A stretch of DNA of 64,000 nt from Desulfobacteraceae bacterium (GCA_011391695.1 JAABQB010000008.1:2719-66718), one strand, 5' to 3'. Shown: positions 2,220 through 37,938, numbered from the stretch's first letter. The notes: a model not told the origin generated them from the sequence alone. Program-made: numbers and translations.

Positions 2220-3530
2220 CTATTTTAAATATTTCAGCTCTTTGGGAAGTGGTATTCCCTTTCCCATGCTGTCTTCCCCGTAATTTACACTTGCAAGAAT
2301 CTTTATATCGTTTAAGGCGCGCACATCACCTTCAAAAGCAACCGCAGACATCTTTTCTTTTTGAATCTTGCCTCCTGCCCATTGTATATCAAGAACATTG
2401 CTTGCATCAAATCTGTCTGAACCGACACAAAGTTCCACCTGACCTCCGAAATGCTGCACTATTCTGGCAACAAGAAGGCTTGGCCTGCTGTGAAAACCAA
2501 GGGATACCGGAACTCCGACCGAAATGGTTGAGCGCTCTATGTTCTCATTTAATATTTCTTTCGCAAGATTTTTTCCGTTTGTTAAAAATTGGCAGACATA
2601 AAACAGGCCGTAATTAATAGTCCGGTCTAAAAGTATATTGGGATCCATAAAAGATGAAAGCTTCTCCTGGACAATTTTGTATATGTTCTTATAGCCAGCA
2701 TCATGCAAATGTCTCTCATAAAAATGGAGGAGCCGCCCTATTATCTGCAGAAGATGGAATACCACCGAAAAATAACTGCGCAGTTGTTTTAATTTCCTGT
2801 TACCAAACTGGTATCCACCGTGTATCACATATGTATCAAATGATGATTGAAGATTGTGCACCACCATTTCAAAACGCCTGATTTCAACCTCATTGATTCT
2901 GTCTGGAACAATGGAGTTTAATTCATCAACATCATACGGTTCGAAAAAAGCATACTGATCGAAGCTTGCGGCAATATTCAGAAATTCACTTGCTATTTTA
3001 ACTATATTTTTTTTTTGTTGATCCCTGTTTTCATCGTCTATGTCGTATTCCAGTTTCTCCCCTGTTGAAAGGCTGGGAAAATCGGCTGGGCTGAAACTTT
3101 CTTCCGGCACAGGAATGCCAAGACGTTGCGCTTCTTTAATTATCGAAGGAGATATTTTGACAAGAGCTTCGGTAAAGAAATCGAGGACCACATTCCCTTC
3201 ATTACTGAATTTTTCAACATCGGGAAGATCATAGAAAGGAAGCCTGTTCAAAATGTGGGACTGTGAATAACAGGCAAGGCTCAAATGCCTTACTGCGGCC
3301 GAAAGCTCCCTGTAGTAATACCAGTTCCTGGTGTTTTTTGCCCCGTGGAAATCAAGAAAATCTTCAAGAAGCTGGGAAGAAGATATAAAGGTGGAATAGA
3401 ATTTTTTTACAAGAAATTGCCTGGGATCGTCATGGCTTAAAAGTGACAGGCAGCATTTAAGGTAATCTCTGGAGAAGATACCGACCTTTTCTGCAAAAGA
3501 TCCGTCTATTTTGTTTTCCTGTAATTGCAT
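2220..3530 (-). CDS. Large protein with C-terminal HPr-like phosphocarrier domain
   Basis: C-terminal GFHSRPSLLVARIV matches the HPr His15 motif (GLHARP). The N-terminal ~340 aa are unrecognised. Confidence 0.7.
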   Translation of the reverse strand: MQLQENKIDGSFAEKVGIFSRDYLKCCLSLLSHDDPRQFLVKKFYSTFISSSQLLEDFLDFHGAKNTRNWYYYRELSAAVRHLSLACYSQSHILNRLPFYDLPDVEKFSNEGNVVLDFFTEALVKISPSIIKEAQRLGIPVPEESFSPADFPSLSTGEKLEYDIDDENRDQQKKNIVKIASEFLNIAASFDQYAFFEPYDVDELNSIVPDRINEVEIRRFEMVVHNLQSSFDTYVIHGGYQFGNRKLKQLRSYFSVVFHLLQIIGRLLHFYERHLHDAGYKNIYKIVQEKLSSFMDPNILLDRTINYGLFYVCQFLTNGKNLAKEILNENIERSTISVGVPVSLGFHSRPSLLVARIVQHFGGQVELCVGSDRFDASNVLDIQWAGGKIQKEKMSAVAFEGDVRALNDIKILASVNYGEDSMGKGIPLPKELKYLK

Positions 3531-6456: not shown

Positions 6457-8313
6457 TTACATTTCAATGAAGTTTTTTAACTTGCGGCTTCTCGTTGGAT
6501 GTCTCAGTTTTCTTAACGCCTTGGCCTCTATCTGCCTTATGCGCTCACGCGTCACCTGAAAATCCTGGCCGACCTCTTCCAGCGTATGGTCAGCCCTTTC
6601 TCCGATTCCGAATCTCATTCTAAGGACCTTCTCTTCGCGCGGAGTCAGCGTTGCAAGTACCTTTCTCGTCTGCTCTGCAAGGTTCTGGTTTATCGCCGCT
6701 TCGGAAGGAAGCATGAATTTTTTATCTTCAATAAAATCACCAAGATGGCTGTCTTCCTCTTCACCTATCGGTGTTTCCAGGGATATTGGCTCCCTTGCTA
6801 TTTTCAAGACCTTGCGCACTTTCTCCAGGGGAATTTCCATCTTTTCAGCAATCTCTTCGGGTGTCGGCTCGCGCCCCTGCTCCTGAACAAGACATCTTGA
6901 TGTCCGGATCAGTTTATTTATCGTTTCGATCATGTGCACCGGTATGCGTATGGTTCTTGCCTGATCCGCTATTGCCCTCGTTATTGCCTGCCTTATCCAC
7001 CATGTTGCGTAAGTACTGAATTTATACCCCCGACGGTATTCAAACTTATCAACGGCTTTCATCAGGCCAACGTTTCCTTCCTGGATCAGATCCAGGAACT
7101 GAAGGCCTCTATTTGTATATTTCTTTGCTATACTGACAACAAGGCGCAGGTTAGCCCTCGTCAATTCGCTCTTGGCTATTTTTGCATTCAGGCGCCCTTC
7201 TGCAACAGAAGACATGATTTTTTTCAGTGTACGGCAATTTGATTTTACTTCATGCTCTCTTTCATGCACATGCTCCTGGTTTTTTTTGAGTTCATCGTAG
7301 AGAGATGAAGCTTCATCCTTCCCAAGCTTGCAGCGTGACCTTGACCATTTTATGAAATTGCTCTTGGATTTAAGATTGGCACGAAGCTCTGATATGGAAG
7401 ATTCTACTTTATCAGCATAATTCGATATGGTTTTTTCCTTGGATTCGAACCAGCAGATATGGTCTTTCATGATCGCCTCAAGCTTGTCCAGAACACTGCT
7501 TTCAAGCCTCCATTCTTTAAGGAGATCAAATATTTTATTGTTGTTGACCGAAATCAGCTTCTTTATTCGCCGCACTTCGTCCTTGTCAAGTTTGGGAGAA
7601 TAGATTCTATCACGCAGTAACTTGTTCTCTTCATGTATCTCTTTTATTGAATGGATAGCCCTGATAAAATTTTCAATCTGGAGCATTTCATCAACGTAAG
7701 TATCGCCTTCGTCAAAATCCTTAAGGACATGTTTAGGCCTTTGCATTCCTCCTTCTATCTGCATCCCGAGATCTGTGACATATTCAACACATGTCACCGT
7801 ATTAATCAGAGCCCTTAATACCTCCTGCTCCCCGTCTTCTATTTTTTTGGCGATATCGACTTCCCCTTCCCTGCTCAAAAGAGTAACAAGCCCCATCTCC
7901 CTAAGGTACATTTTTACCGGATCAGTCACTGTTCCGAAATTTGCAAGAGCCGAGTCTACCCCTCTTTTTGTCTTTTTTTCTTTTAATCCTTTTTCACTTT
8001 CAGGCATTTTATCTTTACTATCATCAACCAATTCAATGTCCTGTTCGTTAAAAAGCATTAGTGTCTCATCTAACTGTTCCAGGGAAATAACATTTTCAGA
8101 TAATTCTTCATTAAGCTCTTCATAGGTTATAAAACCCTTGCTCTTTCCTTTTGATACCAAATCTTCAAAACTATTTTTATTTCTCTTTTTTAGACTTTTG
8201 GTCTTTGATACCGATCCCTTTTTTCTGCCCCTTTTACTTATTTTATGGGTCTCTTTTGTCAGGGCCTGCTTCTTTGTCTTCTTTCCCTTTTTTTGAACTA
8301 ATTTATCTGTCAT
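6457..8313 (-). CDS. rpoD: RNA polymerase primary sigma factor
   Basis: [63 protein letters not shown]. Confidence 0.98.
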
Positions 8314-36048: not shown

Positions 36049-36208
36049 AGGAATCAAGGGTTCAAGGATTCTAGAATTCAAGTGAAAGGGAAGCCTGTTA
36101 GAATTTAGTCAGAGATATAAGATAGATTGAAAAGGGTACGCAAGAAGTTGATATAATAATCAGAAAACAAACACTCGAACCCTTGAACCCTTGAATCCTG
36201 GAACCCTT
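36049..36208. repeat. 8-mer-unit inverted repeat element (family 1, copy b)
   Basis: AGGAATCA AGGGTTCA AGGATTCT AGAATTCA AGTGAAA ... GAAAACAAACACTCGAACCC TTGAACCC TTGAATCC TGGAACCC. Confidence 0.8.
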
Positions 36209-36248: not shown

Positions 36249-36728
36249 ATGCCAGAAGAAAAGCATGTGCTGACAATGCTTGTAGACAACAAACCCGGGG
36301 TTCTTTCAAGAGTTGTCGGTCTTTTCAGCGGAAGAGGATTTAATATTGAAAGCCTCTGCGTAGCTGAAACTATTGACCCGCTTATATCAAGAATCACGGT
36401 TGTAACAAAGGCAACCGAATCGGGAATAGAGCAAATTGAAAAACAGTTGAACAAGCTCATAAATGTAATCAAGCTCAGGAAGGTTTCCGGGCCGAAATCG
36501 GTTCAAAGAGAAATGGCACTGATATATGTGATGGCAAAAAATGGCCAGCGCGCTGAAATATTGAGAATTGTTGATATATTCAGGGGGAAGATAATTGATG
36601 TCGGTACAGACCATTTTGTTATCGAAGTAACCGGAGATGAAGAGAAAATATCAGCAATAATAAATCTTCTCAAACCAATGGGAATTAAGAAAATATCCAG
36701 AACTGGCATCATCGCCCTGTTCAGATGA
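36249..36728 (+). CDS. ilvN: Acetolactate synthase small regulatory subunit
   Basis: ACT domain LVDNKPGVLSRVVGLFSGRGFNIESL. Confidence 0.95.
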   Translation: MPEEKHVLTMLVDNKPGVLSRVVGLFSGRGFNIESLCVAETIDPLISRITVVTKATESGIEQIEKQLNKLINVIKLRKVSGPKSVQREMALIYVMAKNGQRAEILRIVDIFRGKIIDVGTDHFVIEVTGDEEKISAIINLLKPMGIKKISRTGIIALFR

Positions 36729-36740
36729 TTTATAAAGATT

Positions 36741-36845
36741 CAGGCGTATAGACTGTAGGCTTTTAGACTGTAGCAACACTCCATGCAGGACCATACAAAG
36801 ATTCTATCTTGCACAACGACTAACAGCCTTCAGCCTAAACACCTG
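36741..36845. repeat. Inverted repeat element of a second family (AGGCTGAAG-like units)
   Basis: 26-nt imperfect inverted repeats: CAGGCGTATAGACTGTAGGCTTTTAG versus the reverse complement of CTAACAGCCTTCAGCCTAAACACCTG. Confidence 0.75.
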
Positions 36846-36888
36846 TGGAGTTAACAGGCTTTAATACACGTAAAACAAGGAGAAACCG

Positions 36889-37938
36889 ATGGCACTGATA
36901 GATTTTGGAGGAGTTTTGGAAGAAGTAATAACATCCGAGGAATTTTCTCTCGGGAAAGCTAAAAGCATACTGAAGGATGAAACTGTTGCCGTGCTGGGAT
37001 ATGGCGTACAGGGACCGGGACAGGCCTTAAATCTAAGAGATAACGGCATCAATGTTATTGTCGGCCAGCGTGAAGAGAGTAATTCATGGGAACGCGCAAA
37101 AGCCGATGGCTTCATTCCCGGCAGGACCCTGTTCCCGCTGGAAGAGGCAGCAAAAAGAGGCACGGTTATTCAATTTTTACTATCGGATGCCGGTCAGGTT
37201 AAGGCATGGCCTCAAATAAAGAAGTGTCTTAACCGGGGAAATGCGCTCTGTTTCTCCCACGGATTTTCTATTGTATATAAGGATCAGACAGGCATCATTC
37301 CCCCTGAAGATGTTGATGTTATACTTGCAGCACCGAAAGGATCAGGACGAACAGTCCGCACAAACTTTCTGAACGGAAGCGGAATAAACGCGAGTTTTGC
37401 GATACATCAGGATTACACAGGAAGAGCAAAGGAAAGAATTCTTGCCCTTGGCATTGCTATCGGCTCCGGCTATCTTTTTCACACCACCTTTGAAAGAGAG
37501 GTTTACAGCGACCTGACCGGTGAACGGGGAGTTTTAATGGGATGTCTGGCCGGCGTAATGGAGGCACAGTACAATCTTTTGAGAAATCACGGGCACAGCC
37601 CCAGCGAGGCATTTAATGAAACTGTTGAAGAACTGACGCAGAGCCTGATACGTCTTGTAGCCGAAAACGGTATGGACTGGATGTTTTCCAACTGCAGCAC
37701 GACAGCGCAAAGAGGCGCACTTGACTGGGCGCCCAAGTTCCGCGACGCAGTAACCCCGGTATTTGACAATCTTTATCAGAGCGTTATATCAGGAAAAGAG
37801 ACAAAAAGGGTTCTTGATGCGAACAGCACTTCCGACTACAGGGATAAGCTGCAAAAGGAACTGGATGAAATCCGTAATTCCGAAATGTGGAAAGCAGGAG
37901 CCGCTGTAAGATCATTAAGGCCTGAAAACAGGAAATAA
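36889..37938 (+). CDS. ilvC: Ketol-acid reductoisomerase
   Basis: GYGVQGPGQALNLRD, FSHGF, APKGSG, SDLTGERG, CSTTAQRGALDW. Confidence 0.95.
   Translation: MALIDFGGVLEEVITSEEFSLGKAKSILKDETVAVLGYGVQGPGQALNLRDNGINVIVGQREESNSWERAKADGFIPGRTLFPLEEAAKRGTVIQFLLSDAGQVKAWPQIKKCLNRGNALCFSHGFSIVYKDQTGIIPPEDVDVILAAPKGSGRTVRTNFLNGSGINASFAIHQDYTGRAKERILALGIAIGSGYLFHTTFEREVYSDLTGERGVLMGCLAGVMEAQYNLLRNHGHSPSEAFNETVEELTQSLIRLVAENGMDWMFSNCSTTAQRGALDWAPKFRDAVTPVFDNLYQSVISGKETKRVLDANSTSDYRDKLQKELDEIRNSEMWKAGAAVRSLRPENRK

Follow-up and report, generated by a model that had tools for sequence, protein, structure and literature searches.

In the spacer between ilvN and ilvC, the genome of a Desulfobacteraceae bacterium carries a short hairpin-forming element that is very probably the scar of a once larger insertable cassette. 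The element lies within a stretch of 64,000 nucleotides (the window, contig C105:2719-66718 of a 2.8-Mb assembly in 116 contigs), and its core hairpin covers 105 bases at positions 36741-36845. Taken as a whole, it is best explained as what is left of a cassette of ~450-480 bp whose gene belonged to PF05635 and, within that family of four-helix-bundle proteins, to the MRDHTKL clade. Genomes, loci and contigs are given below as G, L and C labels, with G000 as the source genome; comparisons within the genus cover 17 genomes, and pattern searches at the level of the order cover 401.

Gene remnants inside the arms

The loop of the hairpin begins ATG CAG GAC CAT ACA AAG ATT, with the ATG at 36783, and thereby places the N-terminal signature of the clade (here MQDHTK) at the right distance from the left arm, 8 nt after it. 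The 5' 22 nt of this core match intact genes with a score that none of 2000 shuffles reaches. The opposite end of the gene is seen through the orthologous spacer of G404, where MRDYIK is fused in frame to IRSMRND (ATC CGG TCT ATG CGC AAC GAC). The C-termini of the clade read LIRSMRPD*, LLRSMRKC* and LIRSLRDD*, and it is by way of this orthologue that a C-terminal ..IRS[ML]R.D* ending at a stop inside the right arm is found. The 5' match and the G404 fusion bear out the suggestion of an earlier note on this DNA that the core is the scar of a four-helix-bundle gene.

The same note named a subfamily of such proteins starting MRDHTKL and called for a search for M[RQ]DHTK-type starts with inspection of their flanks. 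The subfamily does exist, as 86 of the 120 best homologues of an intact gene from the same genus begin MRDHTKLR. This gene scores 117.6 bits against PF05635 (cut-off 33.8) and 117.2 bits against TIGR02436 (cut-off 24), and its closest solved relative is the pentameric XCC0516 (PDB 2GSC). A degenerate 20-nt pattern for M[RQKN]DHTK[LIF] gave 49 matches in 37 of the 401 genomes and none for the reversed control; about two thirds of the matches sit inside arms like those of the scar, and the single match in the source genome is the one in the scar loop. The 30 returned loci were classed as 7 intact genes of 118-126 aa, 6 broken genes, 7 stubs, 1 match cut by a contig end and 9 unrelated sequences. 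All seven stubs, the ilvN-ilvC scar included, keep just 7-10 codons within the same arms.

Six of the seven intact genes are preceded by a run of AGGCTGAAGG-type units and then a leader of ~10 nt, and in the same six the right arm starts at the stop codon or no more than 9 bases away, the stop sometimes falling within the first inverted unit. Arm-flanked MRDHTKL genes occur in the genus (L032, L073, L088, L093), in the order (L008, L021, L024, L025, L027) and in metagenome-assembled genomes (MAGs) of other lineages, Nitrospirae among them (L106, L109, L110). The MAGs GCA_041484725.1, GCA_034722195.1 and GCA_026387615.1 (Nitrospirae) encode 80-85%-identical proteins within the same arms. Going by these loci, the cassette type is widespread, and the expectation of the earlier note that MRDHTKL-type genes carry these repeats holds in the genus, in the order and beyond. 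In L106/L108 (GCA_041484725.1, GCA_041495265.1; positions 500-1100), an intact MRDHTKL cassette interrupts a tyrosine-recombinase gene, with the Phage_int_SAM_4 part upstream, a ..LLGHASLKTTMIY motif downstream and most of the catalytic domain missing.

Anatomy of the scar

Together with its degenerate outer ends (..TTCAGGCG / CACCTGTGGAGTTAAC), which make it slightly larger than the hairpin itself, the element spans ~36736-36855. Its parts, all on the + strand, are as follows.

36736-36740, +: degenerate remnant of the outer left end, reading ..AGATTCAGG where the family consensus is GTAACTNCTCAGG, from comparison with better-kept copies
36741-36774, +: left arm of tandem 7-8-nt units of the TAGGCTG/AGGCTGA family, from a direct-repeat scan and the fold; 36741-36766 pairs with the right arm
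36775-36782, +: cassette leader of 8 nt (AACACTCC), identical in G279
36783-36800, +: 5' stub, first six codons MQDHTK (from MRDHTK), from the pattern search, alignment to intact genes and the orthologues in G279 and G404
36801-36823, +: 3' stub, last seven codons and stop (from ..IRSMRND*), with a 1-nt deletion common with G279, from comparison with G404
36820-36845, +: right arm, inverted units (CTAACAGCC / TTCAGCC / TAAACACCTG), from sequence reading, the fold and orthologue comparison
36846-36855, +: degenerate outer right end (TGGAGTTAAC; family consensus ..AGTAGTTAC), from comparison with other copies

The left-arm units read, in order, TAGACTG / TAGGCTT / TTAGACTG / TAGC. This arm is 85-94% identical to the orthologous spacers of G279, G404 and G401, and the right arm lacks one 7-nt unit that the same three genomes have. 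The outer left end reads ATAACTCAGGCGG in the G279 orthologue, and the scar's own outer ends are eroded (TTCAGGCG / GGAGTTAAC vs GTAACT..AGTTAC). A leader of the same type (AACACGCC) precedes the start in the related scar L115 of G364. At the other end of the core, CAC AAC GAC TAA occupies 36812-36823; its TAA (36821-36823) is part of the innermost unit of the right arm and is out of frame relative to the ATG. The earlier note was right about the 26-nt inverted repeats and about the codons at which the core starts and ends; the core it put at ~50 nt measures 41 nt from ATG to TAA.

In the predicted RNA fold, 36741-36766 pairs exactly with 36820-36845 through 21 bp with a one-base bulge every 2-5 bp, and the minimum free energy (MFE) and centroid structures agree. 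The fold energy of the scar is no better than chance (z = -1.06); the scar is non-random because its arm word and start pattern recur, not because of its fold energy. The arm 13-mer TAGRCTGWAGRCT occurs 49 times in the 2.8-Mb genome against 0 for the reversed control, and a BLAST search with the spacer finds the arms at more than 20 other genome sites and a unique core.

Decay history in orthologous spacers

The same spacer in related genomes preserves several states of the element. That of G404 is two-armed with the in-frame fusion MRDYIK|IRSMRND, while in G000 and its relative G279 this junction is accompanied by a common 1-nt deletion. In G402, G220, G253 and G090 the right arm is gone, and what remains is the left arm, the leader and a degraded 5' stub that leads directly into the ilvC ribosome-binding site; G401 has two arms around a 7-nt loop. 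The site is empty, with a 40-nt spacer, in G184, G143, G322 and G004, and the genome-wide count of the arm word in these four is 0-2 matches, like the control.

As reconstructed from these spacers, the history shown is one of a single insertion, in sense orientation, into the ilvN-ilvC spacer of the ancestor of one subclade, followed by one internal deletion that joined codon 6 to the last seven codons; the empty 40-nt spacer belongs to species outside this subclade. Later changes in the source lineage, by the same reconstruction, were the 1-nt deletion also present in G279, an R2Q change, loss of a right-arm unit and erosion of the outer ends.

Other copies in the source genome

The arms of the scar are referred to here as family 2, a second scar in the same operon having arms of another family (family 1, described below). 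Most family-2 copies in G000 have tiny loops and no gene remnant. Searches by tblastn with intact family-2 proteins found 3' gene remnants inside family-2 arms at C51:12596-12694 and C23:47768-47824. Three elements at unrelated loci (G000:C51:12566-12757, C23:47698-47855 and C27:42424-42500) have a common junction between left arm and gene at about codon 88, and two of them retain 19-33 C-terminal codons. This common junction may represent either a copied deletion derivative or a recurring deletion.

A further copy at C24:46160-46240 is a further-decayed orthologue of the MRDHTKLRA|LIRSMR.D* scars in G364, G401 and G384. The closest relative of the ilvN-ilvC scar in its leader and 3' end is L115 (G364:C227:15228-15297), in which the leader is followed directly by ATG CGC AAC GAC TAA. 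In the L115 lineage the start (ATG CGY GAY, MRD) and the 3' end (ATG CGC AAC GAC, MRND*) form a short direct repeat, which could promote loss of the whole gene. L115 itself has the appearance of a product of deletion between direct repeats, with only the leader and ATGCGCAACGACTAA left between the arms. Separately, a dispersed repeat, CACAGATTCACACAGATGAACGCAGATAGATT, follows the same GTAACTATTCAG end at G000:C17:~1070-1180, at C78:~7860 and 3073-3257, and at C22:~8240-8285, where it adjoins a family-2 element.

Covariation of protein clade and arm unit

The relation between protein and arms was examined in 61 PF05635 genes, mainly from the genus genomes. Almost every one lies between inverted tandem 7-9-mers, all 61 of the genes are PF05635, and the unit varies with the N-terminal class:

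N-terminus MRDHTKL: arm unit AGGCTGAAGG
N-terminus MLKNYKELKVWQKS: arm unit GGTTCAAGG (family 1)
N-terminus MATIQNFE: arm unit CTGGTTTC
N-terminus MEDKIRNF: arm unit AGTGAAT
N-terminus M.IKSYQDLEVWQK: arm unit CAGGGATCAGGG
N-terminus MEKSKTFKDLKMWQ: arm unit ATCGAAT

Protein identity correlates with sharing of arm 7-mers among pairs without common outer flanks (Mantel r = 0.57, reached in 0/2000 permutations), which agrees with the covariation of protein clade and repeat unit proposed in the earlier note. Below 50% protein identity, arms are shared no more than background; above 70%, sharing is common. As related sequences share labels, the covariation shows that gene and arms travel together and does not extend to recognition of the arms by the protein. 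Identical outer ends in at least two arm families hint at common descent of the families. One four-helix-bundle gene of another clade, L089 (G404:C81:6545-7862), is flanked by TAATCAG/TAACTGA units.

Build, orientation and probable expression of the intact cassette

Read from the outside inward, the intact cassette consists of an outer end GTAACTNCTCAGG, 3-6 tandem 7-nt units (TAGGCTG/AGGCTGA), a leader of ~10 nt and the open reading frame (ORF); beyond it come the stop within the first unit of the right arm, the inverted units and the inverted outer end. Its sole gene encodes the 118-119-aa four-helix-bundle protein (PF05635/TIGR02436, MRDHTKL clade). The leader holds a ribosome-binding site, and no evident promoter was seen in the intact cassettes.

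Orientation was assessed in 61 intact cassettes from the strand that is open throughout the 360 nt outside each arm. The neighbour upstream was co-directional in 28 cases and opposite in 0, that downstream in 23 and 0, and the rest were ambiguous (51 vs 0 in total). The stub in the scar likewise reads in the same direction as ilvN and ilvC. The lack of an evident promoter and the uniform sense orientation suggest that the cassette would be expressed from read-through transcripts of the host, and promoter-less read-through would in turn explain the sense orientation of every clearly called intact copy.

In the predicted fold of the intact cassette from the same genus, the arms close around the whole ORF (MFE and centroid). 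The long stem would form in the transcript as it does in the ORF-bearing intervening sequences (IVS) of 23S rRNA that are cut by RNase III, and the cassette stem may be cleaved similarly; the genome has an RNase III gene. Spread would resemble that of a small transposon, with defined ends, short target duplications and gene-less derivatives. Today the scar is most likely just an imperfect 21-bp hairpin with a 53-nt loop in the ilvBN-ilvC mRNA, although conservation above neutral would allow for a role kept at the RNA or DNA level, or for repair by other copies.

Evidence for mobility

Better-kept family-2 copies end in GTAACTNCTCAGG and its inverse (GTAACT..AGTTAC), ends that are common to at least two arm families. 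At the C51 site, G000 holds a family-2 element and the orthologous site of G402 (L226) is empty. Elements of the CAGGAGTCAGAAT family occupy this site in G279 (L227) and G253 (L228), with boundaries in G279 identical to those in G000 (GTAACT..AGTTAC), and G090 (L225) has a family-1-like remnant. AAACT recurs in both flanks, in G253 as AAATT(T), a local variant present on both sides. This diversity at one insertion point suggests re-use of the site or replacement of the interior of the element. Of two further elements, that at C22 is missing in G279 and G402 and that at C50 in G279. Several copies have flanking direct repeats of 5-8 bp, in a small sample for which shuffled flank pairs reach at least 5 bp in 3.5%. 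Presence/absence differences, defined ends and flanking repeats are, as read from these sequences, transposon-like properties.

IS66 was considered as a mobiliser and rejected. Its ends start GTAA and it makes 8-bp duplications, but the sole G000 copy has ends GTAAGCGCCAAGG.., unlike the cassette ends, and IS66 is found where family-2 arms are missing and is itself missing from the arm-richest genomes. The G000 copy fills its own small contig (G000:C5:1-3232) as a single IS66-family element with a 531-aa DDE transposase and ends starting GTAAGCG, and has no relation to the cassettes.

Host operon and neighbouring elements

The operon runs, all on the + strand, from ilvD through ilvB, ilvN and ilvC to two isopropylmalate/citramalate synthase genes, and the scar occupies the 160-nt ilvN-ilvC spacer. 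Its neighbours are listed below.

36049-36208, +: family-1 scar in the ilvB-ilvN spacer with arms of the 8-mer GGTTCAAG; inverted repeats I1-I3; a separate element
36249-36728, +: ilvN, acetolactate synthase small subunit, the upstream host gene; 159-aa ORF with 84-99% protein identity within the genus
36889-37938, +: ilvC, ketol-acid reductoisomerase, the downstream host gene; 349-aa ORF with 80 orthologues recovered in Desulfobacterales

The earlier note placed two scars ~530 nt apart in one operon, and with the family-1 element ending at 36208 the distance is indeed 533 nt. Family-1 genes, decayed and intact, carry arms matching the family-1 scar of the window. The sequence just inside the right arm of that scar (..ATCAGAAAACAAACACT..) is common to two decayed family-1 genes (G000:C24:28960-29043 and G000:C50:72957-73067), and in intact family-1 genes the last residues (..KHLNP*) are encoded within the arm.

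The source is an uncultured member of the Desulfobacterales, and the closest records to ilvC come from Desulfobacteraceae and Desulfobacterales MAGs. Among the 80 Desulfobacterales (L124-L203; 700 nt upstream of ilvC), the ilvN-ilvC spacer is 21-609 nt long and its content is unrelated; many species have other inverted repeats of tandem words in it. Two species (L129, L130) have a putative small gene pair of toxin-antitoxin type, recognised by position and size only, next to GTGAGAA-type repeats. By these comparisons the ilvN-ilvC spacer is an insertion hot spot. Neither a promoter-like nor a terminator-like site was seen in the ilvN-ilvC spacer of the window: a promoter scan returned three promoter-like sites, all inside ilvN and at about the rate of shuffled sequence. 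An Rfam scan of the scar region found no family match.

Weighing the alternatives

Several observations weigh against a decayed cassette of the MRDHTKL clade. The 3' stub of G000 is not significant in local alignment (395/2000 shuffles), and by itself it is weakly significant when the alignment is anchored at the stop (p ~0.02-0.04); the stub of G279 by itself is not significant in the stop-anchored alignment. The assignment of the 3' stub draws mainly on G404. A profile search with the 23-aa stub frame gave no Pfam match, which is expected because only 6 + 7 codons survive, and the stub is thus the remnant of a PF05635/TIGR02436 member and not itself a member. The source assembly has no intact gene of the MRDHTKL clade (its three intact PF05635 genes are of other clades), and no intact cognate gene was found in the arm-richest genomes (G364 79, G301 72, G000 49). 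Arms that abound without an intact cognate gene argue against dependence on a resident cognate protein. A transposase partner was not found in G000 by the search for end pairs and the examination of IS66; between two GTAACT..AGTTAC ends no larger element was present in G000, just one 186-bp pair. A target duplication is not readable at the ilvN-ilvC copy, whose ends are eroded.

Conservation adds a further point of this kind. Between G000 and G404/G401, identity at four-fold degenerate sites in ilvN and ilvC has fallen to saturation (33-45%) and the spacer is unalignable beyond the element, but the arms are 85-88% identical and the single-copy core is 73% identical (30/41; p = 5e-6 against 0.38). 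A purely neutral scar does not explain this apparent conservation of the core. Constraint, repair from other copies, or an element younger than the species split may account for the excess, and of these repair is plausible for the arms and hard for the unique core.

Constraint would follow if the host had adopted the hairpin as a stem for the processing or stabilisation of RNA that decouples the mRNA levels of ilvBN from those of ilvC and is maintained by selection, a reading compatible with an origin as a scar. Repetitive extragenic palindromic (REP) stems stabilise upstream mRNA in E. coli operons, and here the element lies between cistrons in a genome with an RNase III gene, is conserved well above neutral within an unalignable spacer, and keeps its stem in all four two-armed orthologues. 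Four close relatives have nevertheless lost the right arm and hence the stem, and four other species are without the element. Arm conservation could also result from gene conversion by ~25 other copies. The frame that is open varies between species, so the scar is not a conserved peptide. No compensatory changes were seen among the four stem-keeping orthologues, as their arms barely vary. Pairing of arms within an element (-0.91 kcal/mol per nt) is no stronger than pairing between arms of different elements (-0.93; n = 10, p = 0.62), and with no element-specific pairing the stem itself may not be the selected feature, which also counts against our own reading. We consider adoption by the host unlikely.

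It is also conceivable that a mini-cassette, consisting of arms and the fusion of codon 6 to the last seven codons, circulates as a non-autonomous element and entered the spacer independently or recently in each species. This would account for arms and core that are far more alike than saturated four-fold sites; another deletion derivative with one left junction lies at three unrelated G000 loci, and elements of different arm families recur at the same sites. In G000, however, the core is present once, and the codon-6/last-7-codon junction recurs only in the ilv copy of G404 among the genus genomes and not at all in the metagenome collection, in searches that would miss diverged copies; the lack of a second junction copy counts against recent re-insertion. 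The 1-nt deletion common to the two closest species is what vertical descent predicts, and we regard independent entry as improbable. Far less probable is a gene-less hairpin like that of REP sequences or miniature inverted-repeat transposable elements (MITEs), whose loop would hold an ATG and MQDHTKI by chance and in which there was never a gene. The tiny, gene-less loops of most family-2 copies in G000, the weak fold z-score and the stub without a profile match all fit such a hairpin. It leaves unexplained a start pattern with no control matches in 401 genomes whose single G000 match falls in the loop at the correct arm distance, a 5' match unreached by 2000 shuffles, the in-frame fusion in G404 and the intact genes within the same arms. 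Least probable of all is a regulatory leader, attenuator or intrinsic terminator for ilvC. A hairpin and short ORF directly upstream of ilvC in a branched-chain amino-acid operon invite this reading, but there is no U-tract, terminator-like site or Rfam match, the mini-ORF has no excess of Ile, Leu or Val codons and is frameshifted between species, and the spacers of 80 relatives differ widely in length and hold unrelated content.

Meaning of the scar

If the element is the scar of a PF05635 cassette, its interest extends beyond this operon. Few unexplained small genes are as common in bacteria as those for PF05635 "four helix bundle protein", and the MRDHTKL clade alone numbers 6149 clusters at E <= 1e-20. 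The ilvN-ilvC spacer provides a natural time series, from the empty site through the fused mini-gene, the frameshifted stub and the one-armed remnant to arms only, and this series ties gene-less heptamer hairpins to gene-bearing cassettes. Sense orientation, flanking direct repeats and slower-than-neutral change make read-through, mobility and host use testable. PF05635 genes have been reported inside cas operons (PMC3936711), and those found within operons, cas operons included, may be passengers and not functional partners. Care must also be taken with cassette arms, which can break assemblies or pass for regulatory repeats.

How the ORF-bearing inserts of 23S rRNA arose has been an open question since 1993. 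A broader conjecture, which we offer as tentative and rather doubtful in its entirety, would make PF05635 genes the sole cargo of unrecognised hairpin-armed transposable cassettes that ride host transcripts, with the protein as their own factor recognising clade-specific 7-nt arm words. Such cassettes would be the source of the ORF-bearing 23S rRNA IVS and, by decay, of the heptamer arrays in cyanobacteria, Beggiatoaceae and Geobacter, and some scars, this one among them, would be kept by selection as operon hairpins.

Comparison with known systems

The cassette architecture was not described in the literature found by full-text searches, whose coverage excludes subscription journals. Several known systems resemble it in part. 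Like MITEs, the elements are short, multi-copy and intergenic, with terminal inverted repeats, flanking direct repeats, internal-deletion derivatives and presence/absence differences. The full-length cassette, however, encodes a four-helix-bundle protein and not a transposase, with no partner transposase found in G000; its arms are arrays of a 7-nt word and not unique sequence, and the flanking repeat varies over 5-8 bp. The system of REP sequences, their paired hairpin form (REPIN) and the REP-associated tyrosine transposase (RAYT) likewise places a gene between its own clade-specific inverted repeats and scatters dozens of gene-less hairpins across the spacers of a genome. RAYT is an HUH tyrosine transposase (Y1), whereas the cassette gene has no known catalytic activity; REP hairpins are not arrays of a tandem word, and the cassette hairpins are abundant in G000 without an intact cognate gene. 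Integron cassettes are similarly promoter-less, co-oriented with an outside promoter and equipped with imperfect inverted repeats that fold as hairpins. They differ in that the present elements have no integrase/attI context, carry hairpin arms on both sides of the gene and occur as single scattered elements instead of arrays.

Avd, the accessory protein of diversity-generating retroelements (DGRs), is homologous to four-helix-bundle proteins (PMC10053308) and has the related fold of a pentamer of four-helix bundles that binds nucleic acid. The intact gene from the same genus gives weak matches to PF22296 and NF033474, below the curated cut-offs (40.3 bits vs 80 for NF033474), so the cassette gene is not a DGR component. 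No retroelement context was seen around the cassettes examined.

Runs of a 7-nt word are known from other spacers. The short tandemly repeated repetitive (STRR) sequences of cyanobacteria are intergenic tandem heptamer arrays. TAACTGA, the heptamer that also flanks L089, is reported as an abundant intergenic repeat in Beggiatoaceae (PMC4679880), and its arrays and the hairpins of Geobacter metallireducens (PMC2700814) resemble the cassette arms as runs of a 7-nt word near start codons, some in inverted pairs. Both papers treat the arrays as possible regulatory sites and mention S23p/four-helix-bundle genes 0 times. A link between heptamer arrays and cassettes is a lead, not a result.

The nearest likeness is to the 23S rRNA IVS of Leptospira and Coxiella burnetii (S23p; PMC4990558), in which an ORF of the PF05635 family lies in terminal inverted repeats forming a stem of ~28 bp. 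The Coxiella IVS has a 28-bp terminal stem, RNase III cleavage and a decaying S23p ORF (PMC4990558); the ORF is under reductive evolution, and the IVS is taken to be selfish and perhaps mobile in the past. In the predicted folds of both the scar and the intact cassette, terminal inverted repeats likewise form a stem that encloses the insert. The IVS lie in helix 9, 25 or 45 of 23S rRNA, whereas the scar lies between the protein genes ilvN and ilvC. In the accessible papers, IVS arms are not described as tandem 7-nt units, as the scar arms are, and target duplications, gene-less multi-copy derivatives or clade-specific arms are not reported. Cleavage by RNase III is demonstrated for the IVS and, by analogy, would extend to the cassette. 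The closest published kind is the ORF-bearing, IVS-like selfish element, of which the object in the ilvN-ilvC spacer is an old, non-coding scar.

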